Below, in pieces: positions 12,004-31,184 of a DNA stretch of 64,000 nucleotides; position 1 is the stretch's first letter, and each line of letters begins with the position of its first letter. The notes under the pieces were generated by a model, which was not told where the DNA came from, searched no databases, and worked only from the letters and a program-made list of their open reading frames with translations. Origin of the DNA: a virus; the IMG/VR virus record IMGVR_UViG_3300025598_000023, positions 47,325-111,324 of that record; one strand, 5' to 3'. Made by a program: the position numbers and the translations under genes.

Positions 12004-12009
12004 TATCAC

Positions 12010-13905: not shown

Positions 13906-14104
13906 AGCGTGGTGGGATGAGTTTGAACGTGAACTTGCTACTATGGTTAAACCAAATGATCCAAATCCACCGCCAAAACCAAGTATGGAACCACCTAGAC
14001 TACCTTCTTGGAAACGTGGCAACACATATTACACATTGGCAAATGACCGCCAGTTTCCTGTAGAACCCGAACACCCTAACGCCGTAGGCTGGAATTATGA
14101 CTGA
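13874..14104 (+). CDS. Small Pro-rich hypothetical protein
   Basis: 76 aa, overlaps both neighbours in operon fashion. Confidence 0.45.
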   Translation: MNMDISEQEIKAWWDEFERELATMVKPNDPNPPPKPSMEPPRLPSWKRGNTYYTLANDRQFPVEPEHPNAVGWNYD

Positions 14105-15035
14105 ATTAATTGATATAAGTGAGTTAGATTGTATTTTTTTGAGTTACAAAGAACCAAATGCTGATAGTAATTGGGCATATTTGCGTTCTTTTGTCCCGTG
14201 GGCTAAACGTGTGCATGGCATAGAAGGCAGTGATGCAGCGCATAAAGCTGCCGCTGCTGTTAGTGAAACCGAACGTTTTATTTTGATTGATGGTGATAAT
14301 CAACCAAATCCAGAGTTTTTTAATCAACAGTTGCGCATTAATCAAACAAATGACCGTTGCGTATTTCGTTGGCGCGCTAGGAATGTAATAAACGGTCTTT
14401 GTTATGGCAACGGTGGGATCAGCAGTTGGACAAAAACTTTTGTAAACAATATGCGAACACATGAAGCCAGTGAAGGCGATGCCGACACTGTTGTAGAATT
14501 TTGCTTTGATGACAACTATTGGGCTATGCATGATGTTTGGAGTACTACTATTCCTAATGGTAGTCCACAACAAGCATGGCAAGCTGGATTCCGCGAAGGA
14601 GTTAAACTTTGTCTTGACCGTGGTCGTCGTCCTACACCAGAAGAATTTGAAAGTGTTACATGGGTAGGCAATAGAACTAATCTTGTTATTTGGTGCACAG
14701 TTGGCGCAGATGTAGATTATGGAAAACATGCCATTCTTGGTGCAAGACAAGGTGCTTATAAAACCATGTTTGATGATAGTTGGGATTATACTGAAGTGCG
14801 TGATTTTAATAAACTTGACAAATTATGGAATAATAGTTTAGAATATAGCGATAAAGAAAGTGAAGGATTTGCTCGTATTTTGCGCAACCGTTTAAACCTT
14901 GATATTGCAACATACAATGCAGAACAAAGCAAATGGTTTAAAAAGCATCAGCGAACATACCAGAATATTGATATTATGTTACCAGAAAGAGACGTAGGAA
15001 ATGTCATCAAAAGCGCAGCTAGACAACTCTGGTGA
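14097..15035 (+). CDS. Phage glycosyltransferase-like protein (GT-A)
   Basis: CIFLSYKEPNAD...AKRVHGIEGSDAAH...FILIDGDN (DxD)...YGNGG...AWQAGFREGVKL. Confidence 0.6.
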   Translation: MTELIDISELDCIFLSYKEPNADSNWAYLRSFVPWAKRVHGIEGSDAAHKAAAAVSETERFILIDGDNQPNPEFFNQQLRINQTNDRCVFRWRARNVINGLCYGNGGISSWTKTFVNNMRTHEASEGDADTVVEFCFDDNYWAMHDVWSTTIPNGSPQQAWQAGFREGVKLCLDRGRRPTPEEFESVTWVGNRTNLVIWCTVGADVDYGKHAILGARQGAYKTMFDDSWDYTEVRDFNKLDKLWNNSLEYSDKESEGFARILRNRLNLDIATYNAEQSKWFKKHQRTYQNIDIMLPERDVGNVIKSAARQLW

Positions 15036-16440: not shown

Positions 16441-17461
16441 ATTTCCACTTTGGCATTGGCACATTGAAAATAGTAGTATTTGTAGCTTGCGTTGTCCTCG
16501 CTGCCCTCGCGCAGAAATTCCCGATACACTTGTTCAAACTAGTCTTGGTTTAGATTTTTTTAAGAAGAATTTTAATCCAGAATTTATGCAAGACGTTTGG
16601 CAAATTAGTTTTTGTGGTGATGATGGAGACCCAATTTATGGTAAGGAATTTTTAGAAGTAGTTGAATATTTAAAAACTACAAAACCTAATTTAAGTTTAC
16701 GCATTGTTACTAATGGAAGTTTTAGGAACGAATCTTGGTGGAAAAAACTTTCTCATAACTTGAATCAATATGATGAAATTCATTTTAGTTTGGATGGATG
16801 GGATCAAGAAAGCAACGAAAAATACCGTGTCAATAGTGATTGGGATAGTATAACAACTGCTATAAAAACTGTCAGAGAAAATAGTAATATTATAATGACT
16901 TGGGCTGCAATTGCTTTTAAATTTAATCAGTATGATATTATTACTATGAAAGATTTAGCCGTTAAATGGAATTTTGATATATTTCAACTTACCTACAGCA
17001 CAAAGTTTGGTAGTAAGTATCCTAATTATAATACCGATGGAAAAGACGAGCTTGAACCAAATTCACAATTCATTGCAAAGGGACATAGGTTTAGTCGTGA
17101 AATAACGAATCTCACTGATAGAAAAATACTAGACAATGGTAAAAACCAAATAAATTTAGATTTATATCAAAACATTAATAATGTTAACGATATAATTCCA
17201 CTTTGTAAGATTGGTAATAAAGGTCTTTATATTAGTAGTGAAGGATATTTTTATCCATGTTGTTGGATGGCAAATAGGTATAATCATACACGTTGGCAAG
17301 AGTTTCGTCAGCCACAATATAACTTGAACAAAAGAAACATAAGTGATATATTAGGCGATGAAATGTGGGACAATTTTTTTAATAATTTAAACAATTATGA
17401 TGAATGTAAAAATAAATGCTGTTCACAAAATTTTAATGAGGGATATGCGACATCGTGGTAA
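16433..17461 (+). CDS. Radical SAM protein with C-terminal SPASM/twitch domain
   Basis: CSLRCPRC, GDDGDP, VTNGS, FSLDG; C-terminal PLC...GYFYPCCW...CKNKC. Start moved to the ATG at 16433, overlapping the upstream stop. Confidence 0.85.
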   Translation: MYKFPLWHWHIENSSICSLRCPRCPRAEIPDTLVQTSLGLDFFKKNFNPEFMQDVWQISFCGDDGDPIYGKEFLEVVEYLKTTKPNLSLRIVTNGSFRNESWWKKLSHNLNQYDEIHFSLDGWDQESNEKYRVNSDWDSITTAIKTVRENSNIIMTWAAIAFKFNQYDIITMKDLAVKWNFDIFQLTYSTKFGSKYPNYNTDGKDELEPNSQFIAKGHRFSREITNLTDRKILDNGKNQINLDLYQNINNVNDIIPLCKIGNKGLYISSEGYFYPCCWMANRYNHTRWQEFRQPQYNLNKRNISDILGDEMWDNFFNNLNNYDECKNKCCSQNFNEGYATSW

Positions 17462-18816
17462 GAAGCAAACGTCCAGATGAATCTTTTTTAGAATATAAGC
17501 AGCGTATTCTTGATACTAAAAGTGCATCATTCTGTGGTGCTAAGTGGTATAATGCTACAATTTGGCTAGGTAGTGGGCAAACTACAAGCTGTCATCACCC
17601 ACTGCCGCATCAAGTAAGTGTAGAACAAGTTTTGGCTAACCCTGCTGCATTGCATAATACTCCAGAAAAGAAACAACAACGATTACAAATGCAAAAAGGT
17701 GAGCGTCCAAGTGGTTGCGAATATTGCTGGCGTATTGAAGATTCATCTCCTACTGCCATCAGTGACCGTCCTTATAAAAGCATGCTATATAGTGAAGAAG
17801 AACTAAACACTGCATTTAATACACTGTATAAATTAGATGTTAATCTTCGAACATTGGAGATAGCCTTTGACCGCACTTGTAACTTTGCTTGCAGCTATTG
17901 CAATCCCGCTTTTAGCACTACTTGGGTTAAAGACATTAAAGTTAATGGACCATATACCAATCTGGTTAGTGATGGCCGCAATCATTTTACCCATCTACAT
18001 GATAGTTCTCAGTTATATGGTTTCACTGACACTAATCCATATGTAGAAGCATTTTTTAAGTGGTGGGAAAGTGATCTACATAAGACACTACGTGAATTGC
18101 GTATTACTGGTGGCGAACCACTTATGAGTGGTCATACTTGGAAACTACTTGATTGGTTTAAATTAAATCGTGGCAAAAGTGAAACAAAACTAGCTATCAA
18201 CAGCAATCTTGGCATGGATAATAAAAAGTTAAATGAATTTATTGAAGCTGTTCGTGATATTCCACACGTAGAAGTTTATACAAGCTGCGAGGCATTTGGT
18301 AGTGCAGCAGAATATATTCGTGATGGTTTAGATTATAACCAATGGTTTGATAATCTTGTTGCACTGCATAGCAGCGGTGTAGTTAAACAATTGCATGTTA
18401 TGGCAACTATCAATGGTTTATGTTTGATGTCGCTTCCTAAATTCTTAAAACACATGATGGATTTTAAGATAGGACGAGGAAAAAGTTCTTTAACTTTTAC
18501 GCTCAATATTTTACGTTTTCCTAGTTTCCAAAGTCCAACTGTTATGCCACACAATGTTCGTGAAAATTGTGCAGTTGAATTAGAAAAATTTTTAAATAGT
18601 TACGAACATAGTAATTATTTGCATCAAATGGAAATTGAACATATCAAAAGATTAATTGAATACCTTCGCAAAGTTGAAACACCTCACGAAGGTGCAAGTA
18701 ATAAAAATGTGTTAGAAAAAGATTTTAAAAATTTTTATGAACAATATGATGTTCGTCGTAATAAAAATTTTATAAAAACATTTGCAGAATTGGAAAATTG
18801 GTATAGTGGCTTATAA
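17455..18816 (+). CDS. Radical SAM protein with N-terminal twitch domain (paralogue of 15001)
   Basis: CNFACSYC and TGGEP; N-terminal CGAKW..SCHHP..GCEYCW. Confidence 0.85.
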   Translation: MVRSKRPDESFLEYKQRILDTKSASFCGAKWYNATIWLGSGQTTSCHHPLPHQVSVEQVLANPAALHNTPEKKQQRLQMQKGERPSGCEYCWRIEDSSPTAISDRPYKSMLYSEEELNTAFNTLYKLDVNLRTLEIAFDRTCNFACSYCNPAFSTTWVKDIKVNGPYTNLVSDGRNHFTHLHDSSQLYGFTDTNPYVEAFFKWWESDLHKTLRELRITGGEPLMSGHTWKLLDWFKLNRGKSETKLAINSNLGMDNKKLNEFIEAVRDIPHVEVYTSCEAFGSAAEYIRDGLDYNQWFDNLVALHSSGVVKQLHVMATINGLCLMSLPKFLKHMMDFKIGRGKSSLTFTLNILRFPSFQSPTVMPHNVRENCAVELEKFLNSYEHSNYLHQMEIEHIKRLIEYLRKVETPHEGASNKNVLEKDFKNFYEQYDVRRNKNFIKTFAELENWYSGL

Positions 18817-20095
18817 TTATAACGGTAAAGAACCAATCAAGATTGAAGTTGACCAATTAAGTAATAAGCACAAAGAGCTTATTTTTGAAAATAAAACATT
18901 TTGCATGTATCCGTGGATTCATCTACATGCCTTTCCAACTGGTGAAGCATATCCTTGTTGTAATACAGAGATGAGTGAAACTGTTGGTAATACACGTTAT
19001 GATACTCTTGAAGAAATATGGCATAGCGCACCTATGCGTGATATTCGTAGTAAAATGCTTGCTGGTGAACATGTAAAAGGTTGCAACCGTTGTTATGAAC
19101 AAGAACAAAACGGTTTCTTTAGTATGCGTATGAGTGCCAATAAACATTTTGGGCATCATATTACTTTAACTGACAATCCTACACCACCAATGAAAATGAT
19201 TTATTGGGATATCAGATTTTCTAACTTATGTAACTTAAAATGTCGTAGTTGTGGTCATATCTTTAGTAGTAACTGGTATGATGATCAGGTTAAGTTATTA
19301 GAATTAGAACAAGCTACTGCTGAAAGTTGGAAAACAAGAAATACAAGAATAAATTTTGCTGGAAAAACCGAAGATGATATTTGGGAACAGCTAGAACCAC
19401 AGATTGATAATCTTGAACAAGTATATTTTGCTGGTGGTGAACCACTTATTATGGAAGAACATTATCGTCTTCTCAATGAACTGATTAAACGTGGTCGTAG
19501 TGATGTACGATTAATTTATAATACTAATTTTAGTCAGCTTACTTACAAGAAAACAAATGTGTTAGAATTGTGGCGTGAGTTTAATAGTGTCAGTGTTGGA
19601 GCAAGTCTTGATGCTATGGGTGCTCATGCTGAATATATTCGCAAAGGAACCAAGTGGTCGCAAGTTGAACAAAATCGTGAGCAAATGTTAAAGATTTGTC
19701 CTAATGTAGATTTTTACATAAGTCCTACCCTAAGCATTATGAACGCTCTGCACTTGCCTAAATTTCATCGTGAATGGGTGAATCGTGGCTTTTTAAAACC
19801 ACAGGATTTAAATATTAATATACTACAAGACCCACCACATTATCGTATTGACGCATTGCCATTCCAGTATAAAGTAGATATACAAGAATTATATCTAGAG
19901 CATATTAAATGGTTAAAACCTCAAGATAAATTAACTCGTGCAACAATTGGTTTTGAAAGTGCAATTAACTTTATGATGGCAGATGATAAATCAGATTTGT
20001 TGCCAAAATTTATTCAAAAAACCGCGCAACTAGATAAAATAAGAAATGAAAATATATTAGATGCAATTCCAGAGTTAGGGTATTTGTATGAATAA
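18806..20095 (+). CDS. Radical SAM protein with N-terminal twitch domain
   Basis: CNLKCRSC, AGGEP, YNTN; CMYPW..PCC..CNRC. GTG start at 18806 preferred. Confidence 0.85.
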   Translation: MAYNYNGKEPIKIEVDQLSNKHKELIFENKTFCMYPWIHLHAFPTGEAYPCCNTEMSETVGNTRYDTLEEIWHSAPMRDIRSKMLAGEHVKGCNRCYEQEQNGFFSMRMSANKHFGHHITLTDNPTPPMKMIYWDIRFSNLCNLKCRSCGHIFSSNWYDDQVKLLELEQATAESWKTRNTRINFAGKTEDDIWEQLEPQIDNLEQVYFAGGEPLIMEEHYRLLNELIKRGRSDVRLIYNTNFSQLTYKKTNVLELWREFNSVSVGASLDAMGAHAEYIRKGTKWSQVEQNREQMLKICPNVDFYISPTLSIMNALHLPKFHREWVNRGFLKPQDLNINILQDPPHYRIDALPFQYKVDIQELYLEHIKWLKPQDKLTRATIGFESAINFMMADDKSDLLPKFIQKTAQLDKIRNENILDAIPELGYLYE

Positions 20096-21287
20096 TATTT
20101 GTATATTGCCTTGGATTAGTATAGAAACAACACCACTTGGACAAATGCGAGTTTGTTGTTTAGCAAATGAAAATATTAAAGATACGAATGGCAAAGATTT
20201 GCTCATTGAAAACACAACACTATCATCTGCTTTTGTAAGTGAATATATGAATGATCTTCGTAAGTCTTTTATAAATGGTGAAAAACCATCTGTGTGCAAT
20301 CGTTGTTGGAGCGAAGAAGAAAGTGGACGAACTAGTAAGCGACAAAATAGTTACAATCGTCTTGGTAATCTTGTAAAGCATATTGATTTTAGTAATCCAA
20401 ATAGTGGTGATTTAATATTTCTTGATTTAAAATTAGGAAACATTTGTAATCTTAAATGCAGAATTTGTGGTAGTTTTAGTAGTTCAAAGTGGGCGCAAGA
20501 AGAAATAGAAATTAATAAAGAATATCTTACTGAATATCATAGACCAGCAAAAGAGTTCTTAAGACAAGGACAATGGCCTCGACAAGTTTCTGCTTTTTGG
20601 AATGATTTAGATGTTTTGCTGCCACACATCCGCTATTTGGAATTTACAGGTGGTGAACCATTTTTAATCACCGAACATTTTGACTTTTTGCGTCAAGCTA
20701 TAAATCTTGGTGTTGCAAAAAATATTGAAATTCATTATAACACTAATGGAACACAGTTTCCTGAAGATGCAATAGATATATGGAAACAATTTAAACTTGT
20801 AGAAATCGCACTTAGCATTGATGATATGGGTGCAAGATTTGAATATCAACGTTATGGTGCTAAGTGGGATATTGTTGAAAAAAATTTAAAAAACTTTAGA
20901 GACTTGCGAGATAAAAATAAGAATATTGTGCTACAATTATGTTTAACTGTAAACGCATTAAATTTTTATTATATAGATGAAATATTAAATTGGGTTCCGC
21001 ATCAAATGTTTAATTACCATTATCTTAATGTAGTTCATGATCCACCACATTTTTGTATTAAGAACCTTAATGATGATGCAAAAGAAATGATAACAAGAAA
21101 AATTTCTCAAGCAAATATTCCATCTATATTTGTTGATGAAATTAAAAATTTATTGCAATTTATGAATAGTGGAACTGGCACAGATTGTTCATATCTGATA
21201 CAAGTATTACGTGATAGTGATAAATTTCGCAAACAACATCTTGCAGATCATCATCCAGAGTTGGCGGCAGCGATTGGTTATGAATGA
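20088..21287 (+). CDS. Radical SAM protein with N-terminal twitch domain
   Basis: CNLKCRIC, TGGEP, YNTNG; CILPW..VCC..CNRC. Confidence 0.85.
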   Translation: MNNICILPWISIETTPLGQMRVCCLANENIKDTNGKDLLIENTTLSSAFVSEYMNDLRKSFINGEKPSVCNRCWSEEESGRTSKRQNSYNRLGNLVKHIDFSNPNSGDLIFLDLKLGNICNLKCRICGSFSSSKWAQEEIEINKEYLTEYHRPAKEFLRQGQWPRQVSAFWNDLDVLLPHIRYLEFTGGEPFLITEHFDFLRQAINLGVAKNIEIHYNTNGTQFPEDAIDIWKQFKLVEIALSIDDMGARFEYQRYGAKWDIVEKNLKNFRDLRDKNKNIVLQLCLTVNALNFYYIDEILNWVPHQMFNYHYLNVVHDPPHFCIKNLNDDAKEMITRKISQANIPSIFVDEIKNLLQFMNSGTGTDCSYLIQVLRDSDKFRKQHLADHHPELAAAIGYE

Positions 21288-22584
21288 TTTTTGTGTAGCA
21301 CCGTGGACACATACATATATCTCACCTCAAGGTGAACGCCGTTTATGCTGTGCATCACGTGAACCTGCACAGAACTTTAAACAATATATTGATACCGCTG
21401 GTGGTAATGGACAATTTAATCCGCTTACATTAAAGGAATGGTGGAATGGTGAACATATTAGGGAAATTAGAAAACAATGGTTGTCTGGTGAAGTTCCTTC
21501 TGCATGTGAAGTCTGTGATAAGAAGTTACTTAATACCTCTGTTTATCGCGATTACTTTGGTCACTTGTTTGGTCATATTAGATCAGATATACAAGCTAAT
21601 ACTGATGCTGATGGTTATACAACTTTAGAACCAATCTCATGGGACTATCGTTATAGTAATGTATGCAACTTCAAATGTCGCATGTGTGGCGATATGTTAA
21701 GCAGCGCGTGGGAAGTTGAAGTTCGCAAAAATTCTATGGTTGATTTGTCTAATCCAAAGAATTATTGGATGCAACCAAAGAACCGCCATGCTATCCGTGA
21801 TTTTACTCGTGATGTTGTAATACCAGAATTTAAACAAGCCATTGAAAACAAAAGTGTGCGCGAAATTTACTGGGTAGGTGGCGAACCACTACTTTATGAT
21901 GAGCACTGGACATTCATGCGCCGTATAATTGAATTGGGGTATGCAGATCAAGTTCGTGTGCGATATAATACTAATTTAAGTTATTGCAAAGATTCGCAAG
22001 GAACACTTTGGGATTTATTGCAACACTTTCCGCATTGGGAAATATGTGCAAGTTTAGATGGAACAGGAGCGATTGGTGAATATATTAGAACTGGCCTTGA
22101 CTATGATATGTTTTTACAAAATTTTAGACACGGTGTTGAACAATCAAAACATCCTCGTCAGATGCGTATCGACTTTACTCTTACTACCCCTGGGTTATTT
22201 GATTTGGAAAATATCATCGCTCTTGCTGATGAACTGAATGTTGAATTATTAAGTAAGGTAGTATTTGCTTTCTCGCCTGACATACTAATAAGCCCCTTGG
22301 CACTACCTAGAATGGTGCTAGAACCACTTTTAGATGGTATACAGAAGCGTATTAAACCGCTCATTACTCGTCGCACACAAAGTTTATGGGATGTTCTAGA
22401 ACATCTTAAAACTCGTCCTACATTTGCAGAACAGTTTTCTGATACCTATAAACGTGAGGCAATTCGTGGTAAAACGCATCTTTTAAAATTGGAATCTATT
22501 CGCAAAGATGCTAAAATAAAAATGGAAGATATTCTATCAAGTGAACCAACTGTTCTATCATGGTGGAATTCTATTGGTGAATAA
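21280..22584 (+). CDS. Radical SAM protein with N-terminal twitch domain
   Basis: CNFKCRMC, VGGEP, YNTN; CVAPW..LCC..CEVC. ATG at 21280 preferred. Confidence 0.85.
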   Translation: MNDFCVAPWTHTYISPQGERRLCCASREPAQNFKQYIDTAGGNGQFNPLTLKEWWNGEHIREIRKQWLSGEVPSACEVCDKKLLNTSVYRDYFGHLFGHIRSDIQANTDADGYTTLEPISWDYRYSNVCNFKCRMCGDMLSSAWEVEVRKNSMVDLSNPKNYWMQPKNRHAIRDFTRDVVIPEFKQAIENKSVREIYWVGGEPLLYDEHWTFMRRIIELGYADQVRVRYNTNLSYCKDSQGTLWDLLQHFPHWEICASLDGTGAIGEYIRTGLDYDMFLQNFRHGVEQSKHPRQMRIDFTLTTPGLFDLENIIALADELNVELLSKVVFAFSPDILISPLALPRMVLEPLLDGIQKRIKPLITRRTQSLWDVLEHLKTRPTFAEQFSDTYKREAIRGKTHLLKLESIRKDAKIKMEDILSSEPTVLSWWNSIGE

Positions 22585-22798
22585 CATGATAGAAGATTGT
22601 GGTAAGTGCTATGAATGTCTTAAAAGTAAAACGATTAAGATGCGTTTTAAAGATGATAGTTATTATGATATGCCTATAGTTAATACTCGCATGATACTTT
22701 GCGTGGAATGTGGCAATAAGCGTTGCCCACATGCTACCGACCATCGTTTTACGTGCACTGGAAGTAATGAGCCAGGTCAAATAGGAAGCCGATACTAA
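22577..22798 (+). CDS. Small Cys-rich (Zn-binding-like) phage protein
   Basis: CGKCYEC...LCVECGNKRCPHATDHRFTCTGSNEPGQ. Start at GTG 22577 or ATG 22586. Confidence 0.55.
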   Translation: MNNMIEDCGKCYECLKSKTIKMRFKDDSYYDMPIVNTRMILCVECGNKRCPHATDHRFTCTGSNEPGQIGSRY

Positions 22799-23904
22799 TG
22801 ACTGTTATAATGACCCTTCGCAATCCTTTAAATAAAGAAGATTTATTGCCTGTAATTATTGAACCTAATGAAACACAGTTAGCAGTAGATTGGATGGCTG
22901 CATTAAAAGTAGAACTACAGCGCAATAGTATTTTAGAAAAGAATTATTGTTGGCACGGTTGGCCAAATGGCGCAAGAAACCTAGAGTATCTTACTAGTGA
23001 ATTAAGTCGTCATGCGTTAAACATTTGGAAGTATAATGAACTCGGCATATGGCAAAGTGCTGGTTTAGCTAATATAAAAATTGAAACTGTTTATACACCA
23101 GAAACAGTTATGTTGCCATTAACTGAAGTAAAAAACAGTGGTGGTCCAAATCATGATGTTATGAATATCGTGCATAATTACTTTGAACATTTACAAGGCA
23201 CGGTTGAAAATTTAAGTCCATATTACAAACTAGCTCCACCAAATATCAAATATAGTATAAGACAACTAAACAATCTTTGCCATGAAATTGAAACACTATG
23301 TTTAAGTTTGCGAAAGCAGAAACATAATCCAGATTGGGTTCGTCCAAGCCAAATAACAACATTTCTGAATACCGTTCGTTATAATTTAACAGATGAACAT
23401 CGCAATGGGTTTATAACTAATGGTTATGACCGTAAATTTGCTCATGTTTATATGCATTGGACACAAATTGGTAAAACGCTAATGGAGGTATTCCGTGATG
23501 AAGGTGCTCCCATTTTAGATCAAGCTACATGCGATGCCATCACACATTTGCAATATTACAGTGGAGAGTTTGATATTGAGTGGGGTCGTGATGTTTGTTA
23601 TGGAAAACATGATTGGCATACACGCGAGATTGATGCTTTTAATAAATGGTTGCGGCGTGAAGGTTACAATCCAACTGATACATCACTAAGTCTTGGTTAT
23701 CTGGAACTTGGTTCTATAAATTTAGAAAAAAGTTTTGGAACAACTGATATTACAAAGATTTGGGATATAATGGGTAACTATCTTGACATATATAGTCTTG
23801 AAGTTGATGGACAAACCGCTGTTTACGATTACATTTGGAGTGATGAAGATCACGAACAACGCCAAATTAATTATTTGATGCCTGGTTACAATAGTCATGT
23901 TTGA
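22798..23904 (+). CDS. Hypothetical protein
   Basis: 368 aa, TAATG-coupled; HNYFE and LNNLCHEIE motifs. Confidence 0.6.
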   Translation: MTVIMTLRNPLNKEDLLPVIIEPNETQLAVDWMAALKVELQRNSILEKNYCWHGWPNGARNLEYLTSELSRHALNIWKYNELGIWQSAGLANIKIETVYTPETVMLPLTEVKNSGGPNHDVMNIVHNYFEHLQGTVENLSPYYKLAPPNIKYSIRQLNNLCHEIETLCLSLRKQKHNPDWVRPSQITTFLNTVRYNLTDEHRNGFITNGYDRKFAHVYMHWTQIGKTLMEVFRDEGAPILDQATCDAITHLQYYSGEFDIEWGRDVCYGKHDWHTREIDAFNKWLRREGYNPTDTSLSLGYLELGSINLEKSFGTTDITKIWDIMGNYLDIYSLEVDGQTAVYDYIWSDEDHEQRQINYLMPGYNSHV

Positions 23905-26803
23905 TACCTATTGGTATGATTATGCAGATTGCAATGATATTAAAGAATTAATTGCCAAAGCAATTGCTTCCAGTCGCACCGAATATATTTGGCTGCGTCA
24001 TCGTGCAGTAGATTATACTAATTTTAATTTACGATTTATTCCACCGCGACATCAATCAAACATGTTGCATGCTTGGGCAAGTCATGATAATCCAAAATGT
24101 TACACAACGTGGTTAATACCAATTGAAAATTATGGTGAGATATTTTATCACGATGGTATATTACCTATTGTACAACAACCAACTTGGACAACAAGCGAAC
24201 AAGTATTATATGATGGTTTTAATTTTAATTGGTACCCTGATGTATGGGATTGGGATAAACAACATCACTTTGCAATGGATGGCACTACTCAATTATCTTA
24301 CACAAGTGTAGGAAATGGCAATGAAGTAAAATATCATATTAGCAACTTGCGTTTTAAATCTATAGGTGTTTGGTATGATACAGATATTATAGATGATTCA
24401 CCTTATGAATGGAATTGGATTGCAGATAATCGTATTGACTATACCGATTTTAATTGGAACTGGTTGCCTGATAGATGGGATGCAGATAAAATACATGAAT
24501 TTTGTATGTGGGGCGCGGAACAATTATCTTATACACGATTAATGCGTCGAAATTGTAAAAAAGAAAAAGTCTATCACTCCTCATATCTTACTTTTAAGAA
24601 TATTCCTAAATTGCATCAATTAGAATCTATAGATAGCGAGTGGATTTGGATTATTGACGAGCGTATAGATTATAGCAACTTTAATTTTAATTGGTTGCCG
24701 CCAGCGTGGGATATTAACAAAACACATGCGTTTGTCATGAGTGGCACAACACAACTTGCCTATACTTTTTTACACAATACAAAGCATGCAAGCAAACAAA
24801 TAAAGTATCATATAACAGATTTAAAATTTGATGCTACAAAACAAAATGATGAATGGGTTTGGGAAACAGATGAACGCATAGATTATAGTCATTTTGATTT
24901 TGATTGGTTACCAGATGCATGGGATGCAAATAAAACTCATGCTTTTGCTATGCATGGAACCGAACAGTTGTGCTATACTTTTTTACGCAATACAAAAGTT
25001 GAAAGTGTTGAAACAAAATATCATAAAACAGATTTGCGATTCAAAAGTGATATTGAAAATGATGAATGGGTTTGGATTAAAGACGATAGAATAGATTATA
25101 GTGATTTTGATTTTGATTGGTTACCTGATGCGTGGGATGCCGATAAAACACACGTATTTTGTATGGCTGGCACAAAACATCTAGGATATACTAAACTTAT
25201 AAACACCAATATTAAAAATCCCAAAATAATTTATCACAGCAGTAATTTAAAATTTTTACCACAAGTGCGTCCAGTCATTTATTGGCAAGATTACACTAAT
25301 AGTTTTAATTTAGAAACGTTTAAATCATTAGCAATGGGAAGTGAATGGACATGGATTGCTGATCGTCGCATTGATTATAGCGATTGGGACTTTGATTGGT
25401 TACCTGATGGATGGGATACGAATTATATTCATTGTTTTACAATGAAAGACAAAGAACAATTAAGTTATACTATTCTTATTCACAGAGATGCAATTACAAA
25501 TTTCGTAGATTACAAATATCACACAGCACAGCTACAGTTCAATGATACACATGCTGACATGTGTTTAATTAACACGAACTCATTTGATAATACTATTACG
25601 CAAGACTTTCAAGTTCGTTTAATTACAACAATGGAAGAAGCAATCAAAGCTGCTGTTGCAAAAAGTAAACGTGAATGGTTATGGCTTTATAGTGATTGTT
25701 GTGAATATGATGGTTTTGATTGGTCATGGTTGCCAGACCTTGATCAACGTGAACAAGTGCATTGTTGGCCAAGTGGAACTTGTGAAAAAGGCGATACATT
25801 TTTAATACACGTTCCAAGTTTTAATCCTAATAAAATTAAGTATAATTTTGAACATAGTGCAGTTATCAGAAAAAAATGGACACTTGTCAATTATAAAGAG
25901 GACAATTTAGCCCAAGCCTTACAATACAAAAGCAGTGCAATATACACTATTTTTTGCAAGGAGACTATAGGTAATATTCCTGATGTTTGTTTATGGGATA
26001 AGCGACCTATAATATCTTTAAACAATTCCAATAGTTCAAGTTTAGTGCCTCGTGATTGTATAGTAAAAAAAGAAATATACGAGTATCCGCATCTTATGAA
26101 AATATCAGAAGATATAAAAACACAATATGATATTGTTTTTATAAGTTATGACGAAGTTCAAGCAGATGAAAATTATGTTAAATTATTAGAATCATATCCA
26201 CATGCCAAACGAGTGCATGGTGTAGAAGGAATGGAAAATGCATTGGCTGCTGCAGCTAAATGTAGCAATACTGACTATTTTTATGCTGTTTTTGCTAAAA
26301 CAAAATTATATGAAAGTTGGGATTTTACAACCGAACCAGATTACTGGCGTGATCCTCGCAACTATATCTTTTATGCTATTAATACATCAAATGATTTGGT
26401 ATACGGTGAAATGGGAATTGTTTTGTATAACAAAAAATTCTTACTTACTGCGCCATCTTACGATGAATTAGGAATAGATTTTACTATGAGTTTTCCAGTT
26501 CAGGTAATTCCACAAATTAGTGCCTATGGAGAATTTGCCACTGACCCTTATCGTGCATGGAGAACTGCTTTTCGTGAAACATGTAAGTTAGCATACTTTA
26601 ATAGCCAAAAATCATGCATTGAAACTCAATATCGTATTAACCAATGGAAAACTTATGCTCATGGTGAACATGCAGAAGACGTTTTAAGAGGTGCCAATGA
26701 TGGATATCAATATTTTATTGAAAATAGTGACGATTTGTCAGCACTTAAGAAAACATTTCGTTGGGATTGGCTCAAGAATTATTATAATTCCAAATACAAC
26801 TAA
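23897..26803 (+). CDS. Trp/Asp-rich repeat protein with C-terminal glycosyltransferase-like domain
   Basis: About 8 copies of W.D.RIDY..FDF.WLPD.WD...H.F. C-terminal ~225 aa homologous to 14097..15035. Confidence 0.7.
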   Translation: MFDTYWYDYADCNDIKELIAKAIASSRTEYIWLRHRAVDYTNFNLRFIPPRHQSNMLHAWASHDNPKCYTTWLIPIENYGEIFYHDGILPIVQQPTWTTSEQVLYDGFNFNWYPDVWDWDKQHHFAMDGTTQLSYTSVGNGNEVKYHISNLRFKSIGVWYDTDIIDDSPYEWNWIADNRIDYTDFNWNWLPDRWDADKIHEFCMWGAEQLSYTRLMRRNCKKEKVYHSSYLTFKNIPKLHQLESIDSEWIWIIDERIDYSNFNFNWLPPAWDINKTHAFVMSGTTQLAYTFLHNTKHASKQIKYHITDLKFDATKQNDEWVWETDERIDYSHFDFDWLPDAWDANKTHAFAMHGTEQLCYTFLRNTKVESVETKYHKTDLRFKSDIENDEWVWIKDDRIDYSDFDFDWLPDAWDADKTHVFCMAGTKHLGYTKLINTNIKNPKIIYHSSNLKFLPQVRPVIYWQDYTNSFNLETFKSLAMGSEWTWIADRRIDYSDWDFDWLPDGWDTNYIHCFTMKDKEQLSYTILIHRDAITNFVDYKYHTAQLQFNDTHADMCLINTNSFDNTITQDFQVRLITTMEEAIKAAVAKSKREWLWLYSDCCEYDGFDWSWLPDLDQREQVHCWPSGTCEKGDTFLIHVPSFNPNKIKYNFEHSAVIRKKWTLVNYKEDNLAQALQYKSSAIYTIFCKETIGNIPDVCLWDKRPIISLNNSNSSSLVPRDCIVKKEIYEYPHLMKISEDIKTQYDIVFISYDEVQADENYVKLLESYPHAKRVHGVEGMENALAAAAKCSNTDYFYAVFAKTKLYESWDFTTEPDYWRDPRNYIFYAINTSNDLVYGEMGIVLYNKKFLLTAPSYDELGIDFTMSFPVQVIPQISAYGEFATDPYRAWRTAFRETCKLAYFNSQKSCIETQYRINQWKTYAHGEHAEDVLRGANDGYQYFIENSDDLSALKKTFRWDWLKNYYNSKYN
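24844..25200 (+). repeat. Intragenic ~213-bp tandem repeat (71-aa period)
   Basis: aaatgatgaatgggtttgg...atagattatagt.attttgattttgattggttacc.gatgc.tgggatgc occurs at 24844 and 25057. Confidence 0.75.
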
Positions 26804-27851
26804 CAATATATTCAAGTTCACTTTGTTTAAGTTGCGCAAAAACTGGCAAACTCAAACAAGTGGCTGCTAATTCTTCACTACTTGGCAATTGTAATAAACT
26901 TTTATAAACTGGTTGCTGATGTAATGCTAAAGGAAATTGTAGTCCAGTTTCAATTCCATGTTCTGCTAGATACTGACGTAAAACATCTCTGCTAGGTGAA
27001 ACAATTACAAATTGATTCCATACATGATCGCTATACGGATTGGTAAGAGGTAATATAATTCCGCTGCCTGCAAGATTTTCCAAATAATATCTTGCATTAA
27101 TATCACGTTGTTTATTCCACTTTTTAAGAAATGGAATTTTTGCAGTAACTATTGCTGCTTGCATAGCATCAAGCCGTTCATTGTATCCAATGCCAGTATG
27201 AATATACTTTTCTGTTCGAGCATGGTCTCTGTAGTATCTAATCTTTTCGCATACCTCAACGGAGCCAGTAACAGCGCCAGCGTCTCCCATTGCACTTAAA
27301 TTTTTACCAGGATAAAAACTATAACAAGTTGCATATACAAAATCATTGACATCAACTAGAGTGTTATAACATACTGCGCTTTGTGCTGCATCACGAATAA
27401 GCGGAATACCAACGCTTACGCTGCGCAGTTTTTCAATATCAATAGTTTGCCCATATAAATCAACAAATATTATAGCTTTTGTTTTTTCTGTAATTGCTGT
27501 GGCAACAGCATCAATATTAATTGTATAGTATTGATCTATATCAACAAAGATTGGAGTAGCACCAAGTTGGCTTACGACTTCTGCGGTGCTCATAAAACTC
27601 ATTGCTGGCACAATTACTTCATCGCCGCTGCCAATCCCCAAACTCAACAAAGATAAAAATAGTGCACTTGTTCCACTGCTGGTTCCAGCACAATCTTTAT
27701 TATCGGTATAATTTGCCCATGCAACTTCAAATTGTTTAACTGCATCTCCGCCAATAAAATTACTATTGGCAATACAATTTCTTATAGCATTATCTATTTC
27801 ATATTGACATTCTTTATATTCTGCATACAAGTTTGCATATGGTATTTTCAT
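26772..27851 (-). CDS. DegT/DnrJ/EryC1/StrS PLP aminotransferase (DesV/EryCI-like)
   Basis: SGTSAL, GDEVIVP, DAAQS, SFYPGKNLSAMGDAGAV, GYNERLD. Start at ATG 27851 (ATGA overlap). Confidence 0.9.
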   Translation of the reverse strand: MKIPYANLYAEYKECQYEIDNAIRNCIANSNFIGGDAVKQFEVAWANYTDNKDCAGTSSGTSALFLSLLSLGIGSGDEVIVPAMSFMSTAEVVSQLGATPIFVDIDQYYTINIDAVATAITEKTKAIIFVDLYGQTIDIEKLRSVSVGIPLIRDAAQSAVCYNTLVDVNDFVYATCYSFYPGKNLSAMGDAGAVTGSVEVCEKIRYYRDHARTEKYIHTGIGYNERLDAMQAAIVTAKIPFLKKWNKQRDINARYYLENLAGSGIILPLTNPYSDHVWNQFVIVSPSRDVLRQYLAEHGIETGLQFPLALHQQPVYKSLLQLPSSEELAATCLSLPVFAQLKQSELEYIVSCIWNYNNS

Positions 27852-29221
27852 CCTCGTATCCTTACTGGTCCAATTGACCAATCAATGCCATATTCTGCGT
27901 CATCTCGTGCTTGATTGATTAATAAACTTATTACATGGTCAAAAGCATCAAGAAATCCAACATCCTGTGGCAATGCACGAATTTTCTTTTTATTGTTTAC
28001 GAAAACTTTTGTAACTTCTTCAACTGATGAACCTGCGATATTTCCAATAATGTAACGATCACTGCCTGGTCTATCTAAAAATCCACTTTCGTGATAAACA
28101 TAAACATTGCCTTTTACATCTACGGCAACTGAAACTTGTGGAAAACTTTCTGGAATAATTTCATCCCAATTAATCATCCGCAAACTACCTACATTTTTAT
28201 TATATTTTAACGGCTCAAGCGCATAACCTAAATCAAAATGGGTAGACCAGTTTTTTTTAAAATCATCAATAAGTTTGAATATATCCATTAACTCGCCGCG
28301 CTCGGCATCACTTATTGTACGAATATTTTGACTAAAATCTTCACGCAGTGTAACAAAATCTATTGGTGTTGCGCATTGCTCGTTAATATAATTTATAATT
28401 TTTAAGAGTTCTTTAACATCATTTGCATGTCCTGGCAAAATAATCCAGTTTATACCAACTTTTGTTTTGGCAGCACGTTTTTTAAATTCAATAATATTAT
28501 TAATAATATGTGCAAAACTCTGGCGATTCTTTGTAACAGCATAAGCAGTGTCTTCACTAACGCCATATAAACTAAATCTAACGGCTTCTAAATCTAACAT
28601 ACCAGGATGTTTATCAAGATAACGAGCAGTCATCATATTACCATTAGTATACAACTGCATATTATATCCACGTTGTGCACCATGCGTTATTATATCACCA
28701 AGGTATGGGTTTGTTAGTGGTTCAAGACCGCCGCTTATGCGAAATCTATCTTGCCAATTAACATCTGTTTGTGGGTCTTGGTCAATAATTTGATAAAAAT
28801 AATCACGACCAATTTCTGCATATTTGTTTTCATATTTTGCAACAGGATTGCGTCCACAAAAACCGCAATAAAACATACAACTCAAACCAGTGTATAAACC
28901 AATACGATTTGGATACATCCAACGTCTTTCAATAGCAGATTGCAAAGTGTTGGTTTTTAACAATGGCATAATGGTGTTAGTCCAATATTTTGTTCCTACC
29001 CCATTATGCAAAATTCTATGCTGAGCATCATCGCTATTGCGAATTTCCTCATTAATTTTTTTATGATATTCAAGATTAAAATTATATAACTTAGCAATGC
29101 TTCTTTGACTAATAAAAGGATCATCAGCAAGCATTTGTATAACTTTTTCTGCATCATCAGATAATGCATGATTTTCTATAATATCAGTTGTGGTATCTTT
29201 GTGTTTATAACCAAGTCTCAT
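27848..29221 (-). CDS. desII: DesII-like radical SAM (TDP-4-amino-4,6-dideoxyglucose ammonia-lyase family)
   Basis: IGLYTGLSCMFYCGFC, SGGLEPLTNP, SLYG, IDFVTLREDFS, GYAL, PQVSVAVD..GNVYVYHESGF, FLDAFD are collinear with DesII motifs as I recall them. Confidence 0.8.
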   Translation of the reverse strand: MRLGYKHKDTTTDIIENHALSDDAEKVIQMLADDPFISQRSIAKLYNFNLEYHKKINEEIRNSDDAQHRILHNGVGTKYWTNTIMPLLKTNTLQSAIERRWMYPNRIGLYTGLSCMFYCGFCGRNPVAKYENKYAEIGRDYFYQIIDQDPQTDVNWQDRFRISGGLEPLTNPYLGDIITHGAQRGYNMQLYTNGNMMTARYLDKHPGMLDLEAVRFSLYGVSEDTAYAVTKNRQSFAHIINNIIEFKKRAAKTKVGINWIILPGHANDVKELLKIINYINEQCATPIDFVTLREDFSQNIRTISDAERGELMDIFKLIDDFKKNWSTHFDLGYALEPLKYNKNVGSLRMINWDEIIPESFPQVSVAVDVKGNVYVYHESGFLDRPGSDRYIIGNIAGSSVEEVTKVFVNNKKKIRALPQDVGFLDAFDHVISLLINQARDDAEYGIDWSIGPVRIRG

Positions 29222-30333
29222 TATAATGAATTTATCACAGTTTGTATAACTGTGTCAACTTGTTCATCAGTTAAGTGCCAGTGACTTGGTAAACTTATAA
29301 TACGTTCGTTATTAGTAATATATTCTGCATGTGGACACAATTGATAACCATAAGATTTTACAAATGGTTCACGATTAAGTGGTCTTGAATAATGGCTACT
29401 ATATTCTATGTCGGCAGCCTTTAATGCTGCCTTGACACTATCTTGACGTAATGGTGCTATGCTAAATGAATAATAATTCCATGTTCCCCATTGTTGTCGC
29501 AATGGTAAATCTAATGCTTTAGCATAATTTATAAATTCATTATAATAACGTTTGCAAATTGAAAGTTTTCTTGGTAAATGATCTTCATAGTAAGGAACTT
29601 TTGCTACAAGCGTAGACGCTTGTGTTGATAACATACGAAAGTTAAGACCAGGCAATTCTATTTGACCATAAGGACCACCTTCAATTTTACCCATTGTGCA
29701 TGTGCCATTTAATATAGATGGATGAATTGTTTTACTTACGATAGCACCACCGCCACTGCCGCCAAGATTCTTGAGTGGATTAAAACTTAAACAAATAGCA
29801 TCAGCAATAGTTTGGTCATATTCGTTTGAACATAATCCAAAACTATGAGCAGCATCAATAATCCATTTTATATTATGGTCATCGCACCATTTGCGAACAC
29901 GGGTTAGATCAACGCCTTGACCATATAAATCAACAGTGATAAGAGTGCTTATTTCTTCACCATACTTGGCATACATTTCATCAAGTAGTTCAATATCCAA
30001 CAACCAACTACTATCAATATCAACAAAGGTTGGGATACAACCTACTGCCATGACTGCTTGTGCAGTAGCTGCATATGTTAGTGCTGGCAACAACACTCTA
30101 CTACCGCACTTTGTATATAGTGCCATAAGTGCAGCTATAAGTGAACTGGTTCCGCTATTAGTAAGTTCAACATGAGCATTATTATACTTTACACGAATAT
30201 ATCGTGCAACAGCATCGTGTGCATTACCACTATAAAATTGCCCACTTTTAAAAGCAGATTGCATACCACCAAGTATGTAACCTTTACAATCTTCGTATTG
30301 TTCTTTAAGATTGTAATAATTTATTGATGCCAT
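29221..30333 (-). CDS. DegT/DnrJ/EryC1/StrS PLP aminotransferase (possible DesI-type)
   Basis: NSGTSSL, TYAAT, DAAHSFG, SFNPLKNLGG.GGGAIV, GLNFRM, ISLP. Confidence 0.85.
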   Translation of the reverse strand: MASINYYNLKEQYEDCKGYILGGMQSAFKSGQFYSGNAHDAVARYIRVKYNNAHVELTNSGTSSLIAALMALYTKCGSRVLLPALTYAATAQAVMAVGCIPTFVDIDSSWLLDIELLDEMYAKYGEEISTLITVDLYGQGVDLTRVRKWCDDHNIKWIIDAAHSFGLCSNEYDQTIADAICLSFNPLKNLGGSGGGAIVSKTIHPSILNGTCTMGKIEGGPYGQIELPGLNFRMLSTQASTLVAKVPYYEDHLPRKLSICKRYYNEFINYAKALDLPLRQQWGTWNYYSFSIAPLRQDSVKAALKAADIEYSSHYSRPLNREPFVKSYGYQLCPHAEYITNNERIISLPSHWHLTDEQVDTVIQTVINSL

Positions 30334-31183
30334 CTTCTAAACTTGTCTTTGGCGTGTAGCCAAGATATTGCACAGCACGGCGAGTATCAAGCGCACCACG
30401 TTTTGGCATATCAAATGGTATGCCATCACCATATATAATTTTGCTTTGTGTTTTTGTCCAATCTCTTATTACATTGATAGCATCTTGTAGTGTTCTTGCG
30501 CTTCCATAACTTACATTAGCTATAAAATTATGTGTGTCAAATAGTGCAGCATTTGTGATAGCCTGTGCTACATCTTCTACATATGTAAAATCTAATGTAG
30601 CATGTGGATCATCTACGTGGATTGTTTCTTGATTAAGAGCAGCTTTTATCCATTTAGAGATGACACGATTGCCATCATCACGGTTACCATATACAGCAGT
30701 AGGACGAATGATTACCCATTTCTGTGCAATAATTCTAACAAGTTCTTCGCACATTTTTTTAGCCCTACCATAATCATTGATAGGTTTAAGTGGTGTATCC
30801 TCTGCGATAGAGTCTTTCCAGTCACCATATACCATACTGCTGCTTATATAAACCATTTTTGCATTAGGGTATGTTGTTAATAGATGAATAGTGCTTTGAA
30901 CTGTATTGCGCCAAGCAGACAAGTTGTCTTTGGAAAAAGTTGCTTGATTTGGTTCACCAGCGAGATGGATAATAACATCGACATCTTGAATAACAGTTTT
31001 GCTGCAATCAGCATTGATCCAATCATCATATGCAAATTCCATATAACGACCACGTTCCAAATATAAATCAGTAGTAATATATCGTAAATCATCAATAATT
31101 GTAACACGATGATTAGCATCTATTAGACGTTTTACAACATGATGACCAATAAATCCAAATCCACCTGTAACTAATACATGCAT
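30305..31183 (-). CDS. NAD-dependent sugar epimerase/dehydratase (extended SDR)
   Basis: VLVTGGFGFIG, HLA, ISSSMVYG, YGRAK (YxxxK), DFTYVEDVA. Start at ATG 31183. Confidence 0.9.
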   Translation of the reverse strand: MHVLVTGGFGFIGHHVVKRLIDANHRVTIIDDLRYITTDLYLERGRYMEFAYDDWINADCSKTVIQDVDVIIHLAGEPNQATFSKDNLSAWRNTVQSTIHLLTTYPNAKMVYISSSMVYGDWKDSIAEDTPLKPINDYGRAKKMCEELVRIIAQKWVIIRPTAVYGNRDDGNRVISKWIKAALNQETIHVDDPHATLDFTYVEDVAQAITNAALFDTHNFIANVSYGSARTLQDAINVIRDWTKTQSKIIYGDGIPFDMPKRGALDTRRAVQYLGYTPKTSLEDGINKLLQS

Positions 31184-31184
31184 A

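Follow-up and report, generated by a model that had tools for sequence, protein, structure and literature searches.

Gene layout of the locus

The window analysed here, a 64,000-nucleotide stretch of an IMG/VR record, carries four sugar-related open reading frames, all on the minus strand and ordered as an SDR, the aminotransferase AT-B, a DesII-like radical SAM enzyme and the aminotransferase AT-A (Table 1). The window is regarded as phage DNA because of its IMG/VR record, a T4-like DNA polymerase (phrog_262, 651 bits) and the tail-fibre-like genes found in it. The record that holds the operon is 111 kb long and 33% complete (CheckV; IMG/VR), and it is a fragment of a phage of roughly 330 kb. 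The glycan block begins straight after the tail-fibre-like genes, and a Pfam search over the open reading frames from 6129 to 15035 found only a C1q domain.

Table 1. Features of the sugar operon and its surroundings in the window
Feature	Position	Strand	Remarks
p968 GT-A-like domain paralogue, intact DGD (DxD)	14097..15035	+	BLASTP
Radical SAM array, six genes	15001..22584	+	Pfam, PHROG, NF033640
p368, conserved, travels with the module	22798..23904	+	Orthologues in related loci
p968, N-terminal repeats and GT-A-like C-terminal domain	23897..26803	+	Converges on AT-A, 32-nt overlap
AT-A, predicted QdtB/DesV-type NDP-3-keto-sugar C3 aminotransferase	26772..27851	-	359 aa; PF01041 286 bits
DesII-like radical SAM enzyme	27848..29221	-	457 aa; TIGR04426 327.9 bits
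AT-B, divergent DegT-family PLP aminotransferase	29221..30333	-	370 aa; PF01041 177 bits
SDR, extended, predicted GalE/4-epimerase type	30305..31183	-	292 aa; first gene of the operon; PF01370 129 bits
Thymidylate synthase (ThyA)	31185-32072	-	NF002497 342 bits, cut-off 327
DHFR	32011-32514	-	PF00186

Start and stop codons overlap throughout the operon. The open reading frame of the SDR spans 30305-31276, and its true start is placed at 31183 because a TAA-t-ATG junction follows ThyA. The SDR overlaps AT-B by 29 nt, AT-B and the DesII-like gene share TAATG, and the DesII-like gene and AT-A share ATGA; because of this last overlap with the DesII-like stop, AT-A is taken to start at the ATG at 27851 within an open reading frame of 26772-27881. 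The Pfam and NCBIfam E-values place the family matches beyond chance. The first-pass annotation had described a full-length DesII-like radical SAM enzyme coupled between two DegT aminotransferases, together with an SDR, and this is borne out by the open reading frames, domains and junctions; the motifs that it quoted (DAAQ and SFYPGKNL in AT-A, DAAH in AT-B and SSSM in the SDR) are all present.

ThyA and DHFR lie directly upstream and are probably co-transcribed with the sugar operon, while standing outside the sugar pathway. Their adjacency to the operon is not kept in relatives, where ThyX or other genes occupy this position. A role in DNA hypermodification, suggested by these two neighbours, was rejected on the lack of conserved adjacency and on a ThyA score above the equivalog cut-off for true thymidylate synthases.

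The four sugar enzymes and their relatives

The radical SAM enzyme matches the rSAM_desII profile TIGR04426 with an E-value of 1e-97 and 327.9 bits over model positions 35-460 of 468, and its only solved relatives are DesII structures (8hzv/8hzy, E 1e-66; 8hzv over residues 72-453). The likeness to DesII that had been proposed for this gene is therefore upheld at the family level, with a score below the curated DesII equivalog cut-off of 450 bits; the authentic-clade representative P0155 reaches 722.7 bits and the phage relatives 321-341 bits. The cluster, GGE, ribose, beta-6 Asp and Glu features are those of DesII from Streptomyces venezuelae, a TDP-4-amino-4,6-dideoxy-D-glucose deaminase (8HZV/8HZY). 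C115/C119/C122 of the cluster motif CMFYCGFC align with DesII C141/C145/C148 (CX3CX2C), GGLE aligns with G187-E190, the ribose motif R..S.Y with R238/S240/Y242, and RED(F) with the beta-6 residue D323, with Phe replacing DesII Y324. E378 aligns with DesII E408 and is invariant across 14 diverse homologues. The catalytic residues of DesII include E408 as the proposed active-site general base; the Glu contacts the 4-ammonium and has been proposed to link 3-OH with 4-NH3+ in the substrate, and DesII performs both deamination and dehydrogenation (PMC11434129).

The phage enzyme is about 35% identical to the authentic-clade representative and falls in a separate clade. In a quick maximum-likelihood search rooted on a single long-branched outgroup row, it lies in a 14-row clade with 12 phage rows (SH-aLRT 93), and authentic DesII (P0155) lies in a separate 26-row clade (SH-aLRT 98). 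On sequence grounds, we assign the enzyme to the broad DesII family, in a clade that consists mostly of phage sequences and does not contain authentic DesII. The same broad family includes uncharacterised homologues, either stand-alone or as GFO/IDH/MocA-DesII-like fusions, from SAR11, Thaumarchaeota, Elusimicrobia and Omnitrophota (33-45% identity; 320-430 bits to TIGR04426). As in the phage, their context is one of nucleotide sugars or surface glycans, in clusters with NeuB, a PseB-like gene and GT1. However, the cellular homologues are partnered with an NAD(P) oxidoreductase, often as a fusion to a GFO/IDH/MocA sugar oxidoreductase, and not with DegT aminotransferases. Such fusions fit a radical SAM enzyme that makes a keto sugar, which the partner then reduces or, in the phage, aminates.

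Explicit consensus strings describe the lysine motifs of C3- and C4-type aminotransferases. We typed AT-A and AT-B against characterised enzymes by bit-score rank and lysine motif, with the motif classes following bioRxiv 10.1101/2021.09.04.459008. AT-A is closest to the characterised C3 enzymes QdtB (3frk, 247 bits) and DesV (2oga, 222 bits), followed by WbpE (183 bits) and DesI (81 bits). It contains RDAAQ and SFYPGKNL, and its Schiff-base lysine lies in a C3 motif, SFYPGKNLSAMGDAG, that recurs unchanged in the orthologues encoded after the DesII-like gene in relatives. AT-A shares DAAQ and the lysine motif SFYPGKNL.A.GD[AG]G with QdtB (3FRK) and DesV (2OGA), although it has Ser where those enzymes have Gly after KNL. 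The first-pass view of AT-A as DesV-like thus holds, and AT-A is predicted, with a well-supported family assignment, to be a clear QdtB/DesV-type C3 aminotransferase.

AT-B contains IIDAAHS and SFNPLKNLG and keeps the lysine in SFNPLKNLGGSGGG, while lacking the acidic residue of the GDGG/GEGG motifs. Its lysine motif reads KNLGGSGGG, in contrast to the C4-type K..TTGEGG. The best PDB matches are C3-type enzymes (104-109 bits) as against 53 bits for DesI (2po3), and the DesI model TIGR04427 gives 72.6 bits against a 650-bit cut-off. In equivalog score, nearest similarity and the motif K..(T/S).GEGG, AT-B therefore departs from DesI-type C4 enzymes. The aminotransferase at this position in relatives is C3-like too, and it is missing from four related loci (L002/L003, L017 and L019). 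As such, AT-B does not appear to be the DesI equivalent that it had been taken for, and its best matches and lysine motif are those expected of a C3-like enzyme.

The SDR carries TGGFGFIG, YISSSMVYGD and YGRAK, with TGGFGFIG, SSSMVYGD and YGRAK kept in all nine phage orthologues, and so possesses the GxxGxxG, catalytic Ser and YxxxK of extended SDRs. Its best PDB matches are the UDP-GlcA and UDP-GlcNAc 4-epimerases 6zl6 and 6dnt. The T-(D/S)-E motif of 4,6-dehydratases is absent (SSSMVYG as against STSEMFG in the GDP-mannose 4,6-dehydratase, Gmd, of relatives), and TIGR01181 gives 88 bits against a 365-bit cut-off. Judged by its sequence, which epimerase, reductase and oxidase activities would share alike, the SDR is of the GalE type (SSS...YxxxK) and not a 4,6-dehydratase, in agreement with the earlier view that it is not RmlB-like.

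The operon contains no 4,6-dehydratase, nucleotidyltransferase, 3,4-ketoisomerase or N-methyltransferase; for this fragment, it had been correctly noted that RmlA and DesVI are missing from it. No 4,6-dehydratase was found in the window record. Complete relatives encode Gmd (399 bits to 1rpn) along with further sugar genes; their Gmd is more than 100 kb away from the operon locus, and no nucleotidyltransferase, FdtA-type isomerase or GFO/IDH/MocA dehydrogenase was found in them.

Conserved neighbours and the glycosyltransferase-like proteins

Of 20 related phage loci from IMG/VR, 16 keep the order SDR-(AT)-DesII-like-AT-A, on contigs of up to 345 kb, and 16 have p968 adjoining the sugar genes with the N-twitch radical SAM array nearby. 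The DesII-like gene with AT-A is the commonest pairing across the lineage. Most relatives also encode a carbamoyltransferase, which is the neighbour of p968 in 12 related loci. In the relatives of 345 and 342 kb, the locus includes, besides a carbamoyltransferase, a flavin-dependent Trp-type halogenase (306 bits) and an AMP-binding adenylating enzyme (200 bits), two genes that this record and most relatives lack. At the deep-branching locus L004, DesII-like genes occur together with an aminotransferase that bears the C4 motif KNMTTGEGG and DAAH. Neither the operon nor the radical SAM enzyme found a match among 50,697 deposited phage genomes by blastn and tblastn, and the lineage is therefore known from metagenomes alone.

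The protein p968 has internal repeats at its N-terminus, and its C-terminus is formed by a conserved domain of some 400 aa. The top Foldseek matches of its AlphaFold model (pLDDT 81) are all GT-A proteins, namely SunS, TarP, WrtF, RmlT and ppGalNAc-T (E ~1e-4, probability at least 0.97). Structural comparison (VIA) gave Z 11.1 with B4GALNT1 (rmsd 3.0, 139 residues aligned) and Z 9-11 with GT-A matches over model residues 173-318, a range in which nucleotidyltransferases of the same fold also score Z 9-10. The model thus predicts a GT-A (nucleotide-diphospho-sugar transferase) fold for the C-terminal domain. The DxD motif is replaced in p968, which has VFAK where the paralogue encoded upstream has DGD (28% identity over 164 aa of the p968 C-terminus, E 4e-15), and the ESM Atlas placed p968 in unnamed viral clusters only.

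The proteins that p968 matches in fold include the capsid glycosyltransferase A64R of PBCV-1 (2P6W/2P73; Z 9.0-9.1), and phage and giant-virus glycan machineries likewise encode GT-A-type transferases beside structural genes. The glycosylation of mycobacteriophage virions represents a comparable phage glycan machinery.

The radical SAM array comprises five N-terminal-twitch proteins (NF033640, 284-407 bits, cut-off 170) and one radical SAM/SPASM protein, and it is syntenic with the sugar genes in relatives. Among the phage systems known to us, none has a radical SAM step towards a deoxy or amino sugar, and none an N-twitch radical SAM array. A full-text literature search on DesII in phages gave no relevant paper, and neither did a search on radical SAM enzymes and glycosyltransferases in jumbo phages. 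Orthologues of p368 occur in L002-L004, L010-L012 and L019; Foldseek returned no significant match for its model (pLDDT 67), structural comparison gave only generic helical bundles with Z below 8, and the ESM Atlas yielded nothing useful for it. Every short open reading frame with hits in relatives proved to be an alternative-frame shadow of a large gene, and the Cys-rich open reading frame at 22541-22798 found no counterpart in the retrieved loci, which stop short of the GT-like region upstream in relatives.

Candidate product and its destination

We consider the operon to be the nucleotide-sugar tailoring part of a larger glycan-building island conserved in an uncultured jumbo-phage lineage, with a probability of roughly 0.55. 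Its role is probably to supply a rare amino sugar to a sugar-attaching system that the phage itself encodes; the product is most likely an NDP-3-amino sugar, which may be 4-deoxy, destined for a glycan built by the phage. The GalE-type SDR may act at C4 of an NDP-hexose supplied by host or phage, by epimerisation, oxidation or reduction. The DesII-like enzyme, using [4Fe-4S] and SAM, would then take a hydrogen atom off one of the carbinol carbons of the sugar, C3 in the case of DesII; where AT-B or another aminotransferase has placed an amine on the adjacent carbon, Glu-aided loss of ammonia would give a 3-keto-4-deoxy sugar, a chemistry demonstrated for DesII and inferred for the phage enzyme. 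AT-A may transaminate the keto group to yield the NDP-3-amino sugar, and p968 and its GT-A-like paralogue may transfer it, most plausibly to a virion or tail-fibre protein or glycan. Conserved synteny suggests that the N-twitch radical SAM enzymes, along with the carbamoyltransferase in relatives, could tailor the sugar further.

Several observations were counted against this explanation. They comprise the sub-cut-off score of the radical SAM enzyme and its place outside the clade of authentic DesII, the lack of a DesI-type partner, the single aminotransferase in four relatives, the pathway genes missing from the operon, the distant Gmd and the replaced DxD of p968.

The full desosamine logic is one specific case of the glycan-building explanation, and we consider it rather unlikely. 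Here, AT-B would act as a functional DesI on an NDP-4-keto-6-deoxyhexose that comes from the host or from a dehydratase of the phage, and C4 deamination followed by AT-A would give an NDP-3-amino-3,4,6-trideoxyhexose. The genes are colinear with DesI, DesII and DesV, the radical SAM gene is followed directly by a C3-type aminotransferase gene, as it is in the Des pathway, and AT-B is translationally coupled to the radical SAM gene. DesII residues are kept, including the Glu that contacts the 4-ammonium (PMC11434129), the pairing in L004 involves a C4-motif aminotransferase, and Gmd in complete relatives makes a 4-keto-6-deoxy sugar. However, AT-B is unlike DesI in score and motif, the upstream aminotransferase is not universal in the lineage, the operon SDR is GalE-type in a record without a 4,6-dehydratase, and the radical SAM enzyme scores under the equivalog cut-off. 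Unlike the Des pathway, the phage operon also has no DesI-type partner, DesIV dehydratase, DesVI methyltransferase or macrolide context. The desosamine-like route as first proposed is therefore only half supported: the placing of AT-A among C3 aminotransferases stands, whereas AT-B is not DesI-like. The 4-amino to 4-deoxy step, and with it a 3-amino-3,4,6-trideoxy product, is no more than one possibility.

It is also conceivable, if improbable to a similar degree, that the DesII-like enzyme is a radical C3 dehydrogenase of a 4-hydroxy NDP-sugar, with AT-A giving a 3-amino-3-deoxy sugar that is not 4-deoxy and AT-B serving a second amination or another sugar. The dual deaminase/dehydrogenase activity of DesII is documented, with TDP-quinovose as the substrate dehydrogenated (PMC11434129), AT-A and AT-B are both C3-like, several relatives that retain the common pairing have no second aminotransferase, and complete relatives offer neither isomerase nor GFO/IDH/MocA dehydrogenase as an alternative source of a 3-keto sugar. 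Contrarily, the Glu proposed to bridge 3-OH and 4-NH3+ is invariant, although it could be used for dehydrogenation too; an aminotransferase lies immediately upstream of the radical SAM gene in this phage and most relatives; and the cellular GFO/IDH/MocA fusions would be redundant if the radical SAM enzyme merely dehydrogenates.

A further alternative concerns the destination of the sugar and not its chemistry, and we regard it as the least probable: instead of decorating the virion, the island would yield a glycosylated natural product that diffuses, or would act on the host surface or some other non-virion target, with the operon as the deoxy-amino-sugar arm of a secondary-metabolite-like cluster. 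This is suggested by the halogenase, adenylating enzyme and carbamoyltransferase of the 345- and 342-kb relatives, by the antibiotics that authentic DesII pathways serve and by the top fold match of p968, the peptide S-glycosyltransferase SunS, but the first two enzymes are lacking in this record and in the majority of relatives, the block begins right after tail-fibre-like genes, and no PKS, NRPS or exporter was seen.

Within the glycan-building explanation, a bolder proposal is possible but doubtful. The phage DesII-like clade, with two C3-like aminotransferases and a GalE-type SDR, may perform a radical deoxygenation and amination sequence that departs from desosamine biosynthesis in regiochemistry or nucleotide carrier, yielding an undescribed deoxy-amino sugar. 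GT-A-like proteins would couple this sugar to proteins of the virion or tail fibre, and N-twitch radical SAM enzymes would edit it further. If true, a virus would for the first time be seen to run a radical-SAM-based sugar pathway and to build a heavily radical-edited glycan.

To our knowledge, DesII chemistry, in which a radical enzyme strips an oxygen off antibiotic sugars, has been studied solely in actinomycete antibiotic sugar pathways. The family is found here in a giant aquatic phage lineage and in abundant marine microbes, SAR11 and Thaumarchaeota among them, with different partner enzymes, and this wider spread implies a broader biological role for radical-SAM sugar deoxygenation or oxidation. 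For experimenters, the operon would represent a compact four-gene cassette for rare amino-sugar production. If the product decorates virions, it would amount to a new phage surface chemistry, with a bearing on host recognition and defence evasion.

Operon layout and the DesII-like radical SAM enzyme

The IMG/VR record carrying the window is 111 kb long and rated 33% complete by CheckV, so the whole phage genome is probably about 330 kb; two near-complete relatives (G001 and G002) measure 345 and 342 kb. Genes in the window include one for a T4-like DNA polymerase of family B and others for tail-fibre-like proteins, and there are also a C1q-domain gene and two giant ORFs. The sugar operon consists of four real genes with coupled junctions, namely an extended SDR, a DegT aminotransferase (AT-B), a DesII-like radical SAM enzyme, and a second DegT aminotransferase (AT-A). 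The ThyA/SDR junction reads TAA-t-ATG, the SDR and AT-B genes overlap by 29 nt, and the junctions of the radical SAM gene are TAATG with AT-B and ATGA with AT-A. The first-pass annotation had described the same four genes, and all of its motifs (DAAH, DAAQ, SFYPGKNL, SSSM, and CxxxCxxC) were found in their products.

Table. Features in and around the sugar operon (window coordinates)
Feature	Position	Strand	Remarks
Giant ORF, >2042 aa	1-6129	+	runs past window end
C1q-domain protein	6815-7768		
Paralogue of p968 GT-A-like domain	14097-15035		intact DGD where p968 has VFAK
Six radical SAM genes	15001-22584	+	five tandem N-twitch (NF033640, 284-407 bits), one radical SAM/SPASM
Cys-rich small ORF, 70-85 aa	22541-22798	+	several CxxC pairs; between last radical SAM gene and p368
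p368	22798-23904	+	travels with module
p968	23897-26803	+	repeats and GT-A-like C-terminal domain
Sugar operon	26772-31183	-	four genes
AT-A, DegT aminotransferase	26772-27851	-	true start ATG 27851, end 26772
Radical SAM, 457 aa	27848-29221	-	
AT-B, DegT aminotransferase	29221-30333	-	
Extended SDR	30305-31183	-	true start ATG 31183
DUF2201/VWA protein	33834-35090		
B12-binding radical SAM	35561-37018	-	PhpK/RiPP C-methyltransferase-like, ~75 bits
MoxR ATPase	37113-38237		
Further N-twitch radical SAM, sixth copy	~50010-51068	-	above NF033640 cut-off; 28 kb away, beside replication genes
Giant ORF, >2277 aa	57139-64000	-	runs past window end

The radical SAM enzyme matches the DesII family both by profile (NCBIfam TIGR04426, E 1e-97, model positions 35-460 of 468) and by solved structure, where the DesII entries 8hzv and 8hzy (E 1e-66) are its only relatives. 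In a residue-by-residue alignment with DesII, using the residue roles of the DesII structure paper (PMC11434129), the three cluster cysteines, GGLE, the R-S-Y ribose motif, and the beta-6 Asp are kept. The proposed general base of DesII, E408 (PMC11434129), is conserved as E378, which is invariant across 14 diverse homologues. On TIGR04426 the enzyme scores 327.9 bits, short of the equivalog cut-off of 450. Members from phages, SAR11, and Thaumarchaeota all fall between 320 and 341 bits on this model, and the authentic DesII representative P0155 (599 bits to 8hzv) scores 722.7 bits. In a quick maximum-likelihood tree, the enzyme groups mainly with phage proteins, in a clade where 12 of the 14 rows are phage (SH-aLRT 93), and authentic DesII, SAR11, and fusion proteins share a different clade (SH-aLRT 98). 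Because the catalytic residues are conserved, yet the score is below the cut-off and the clade is separate, we predict from its sequence that the enzyme belongs to the broad DesII family with its mechanism intact but is not a DesII orthologue. The family is small: 1.84 billion cluster representatives include about 50 members at E <=1e-30.

Aminotransferases and SDR

C3 and C4 aminotransferases differ in the motif around the Schiff-base lysine (bioRxiv 10.1101/2021.09.04.459008). AT-A has its highest scores with the C3 aminotransferases QdtB (247 bits), DesV (222 bits), and WbpE (183 bits), with DesI at only 81 bits. Its lysine motif, SFYPGKNLSAMGDAG, is of the C3 type and recurs in all the orthologues located downstream of the radical SAM gene in relatives. 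The DesV-like assignment made earlier for this protein from DAAQ...SFYPGKNL is thus borne out.

AT-B retains the Schiff-base lysine but is divergent. Its top PDB matches, at 104-109 bits, are C3-type enzymes, and DesI reaches 53 bits. Against the 650-bit cut-off of the DesI equivalog model, AT-B scores 72.6 bits. Its motif, KNLGGSGGG, has neither the acidic residue of the C3 class (GDGG) nor that of the C4 class (GEGG). The aminotransferase in this position in relatives is only ~26% identical to AT-B, is C3-like (top matches 7b0d, QdtB, and DesV), and is likewise without the acidic residue; it is missing altogether from the related loci L002/L003, L017, and L019. Since AT-B and its positional counterparts are C3-like and the counterparts are sometimes absent, the DAAH motif is not diagnostic of DesI, and the proposal that AT-B is the DesI equivalent is unsupported, though conceivable.

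The SDR carries a GalE-type signature (GxxGxxG, SSSMVYGD, and YGRAK) common to 9 of 9 phage orthologues, and in sequence the solved structures nearest to it are 4-epimerases acting on UDP-GlcA and UDP-GlcNAc. These motifs indicate that it is not a 4,6-dehydratase, in agreement with the earlier caveat that it is not RmlB-like; the phage GDP-mannose 4,6-dehydratase, an enzyme type whose product is GDP-4-keto-6-deoxymannose, instead has the dehydratase motif STSE. The two near-complete relatives carry this bona fide dehydratase (399 bits to 1rpn) with a methyltransferase gene as its neighbour (L031 9250-10227, minus strand, in G001), and also a second sugar cluster (L032 5440-10739 in G001) encoding GT1-like, SDR, B12-radical SAM, and truncated DegT proteins. 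Both are distant from the DesII locus. Genes for an NTP_transferase, an FdtA isomerase, or a GFO/IDH/MocA protein were not found in either of these relatives.

Gene neighbourhood in related phages

Twenty related IMG/VR phage loci were fetched, on contigs of up to 345 kb, and 16 have the same neighbourhood. On one flank, a MoxR ATPase, a DUF2201/VWA protein, and small ORFs are followed by the SDR, usually an aminotransferase, the DesII-like gene, and AT-A; most relatives keep the MoxR and VWA pair in synteny with the sugar operon. In the window, a B12-binding radical SAM gene sits between these two. In L007/L008, a Na+/H+ exchanger-like membrane protein is encoded immediately upstream of the SDR.

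On the opposite flank are p968, usually a carbamoyltransferase, p368, and radical SAM genes, and the p968-side genes converge on the sugar genes in most loci. In the window, p968 and AT-A share 32 nt at their 3' ends (26772-26803), which leaves no space for an intergenic terminator. The carbamoyltransferase adjoins p968 in 12 related loci and was not found in the window's 111-kb record (33% complete). The Cys-rich ORF has no counterpart in the fetched related loci, and no conserved micropeptide was found within the sequence covered. We know of no reaction for the N-twitch family.

In p968, N-terminal repeats of varying number precede a conserved C-terminal domain of ~400 aa. The AlphaFold model of this domain (pLDDT 81) matches GT-A glycosyltransferases, with SunS, TarP, WrtF, RmlT, and ppGalNAc-T as the top Foldseek matches, and compares with B4GALNT1 (VIA) at Z 11.1 and rmsd 3.0 over 139 aligned residues.

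Proposed pathway and cellular homologues

We propose, with a probability of roughly 0.55, that the DesII-like enzyme would generate a keto-sugar intermediate, that this would be converted to an NDP-3-amino sugar, and that the adjacent GT-A-like proteins would transfer the product. Within this reading it is possible, if doubtful, that the radical step is a C4 deamination, giving the 4-deoxy product of the first-pass annotation. In L004 (1326-5787), a deep-branching phage relative, two DesII-like paralogues flank an opposite-strand aminotransferase with the canonical C4 motif (KNMTTGEGG) and DAAH. This pairing argues for C4 deamination, but AT-B in the role of DesI is C3-like by score and its motif is without the C4 acidic residue. 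C3 dehydrogenation is an equally tentative option for this step, and DesII itself also dehydrogenates TDP-quinovose (PMC11434129).

For the NDP-3-amino sugar, virion decoration is favoured as the destination because the gene block follows tail-fibre-like genes. A natural-product-like destination seems improbable, although in G001 and G002 the sugar operon is accompanied at this locus (L007/L008 17419-21369) by genes for a Trp-type flavin halogenase, an AMP-binding adenylating enzyme, and a carbamoyltransferase, a set that together resembles a natural-product cluster.

No homologue was found in deposited phage genomes (blastn and tblastn against 50,697 genomes), and full-text literature searches yielded no publication about DesII in phages. 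The radical SAM enzyme also has cellular relatives (29-41% identity), among them proteins of SAR11 single-cell genomes, a Marine Group I thaumarchaeote, Elusimicrobia, and Omnitrophota. Their genes have NeuB, PseB-like, SDR, and GT1 genes as neighbours, and in most cases no DegT gene nearby. Many cellular DesII-family proteins are fusions of an N-terminal GFO/IDH/MocA oxidoreductase to a C-terminal DesII-like domain (P0127, P0129, P0132, P0141, P0144, and P0153), of which P0153 exceeds the DesII equivalog cut-off. To our knowledge, this architecture has not been described. These proteins point to a general arrangement in which the radical SAM step yields a keto sugar that a partner then reduces, as in the fusions, or aminates, as with DesV and AT-A.
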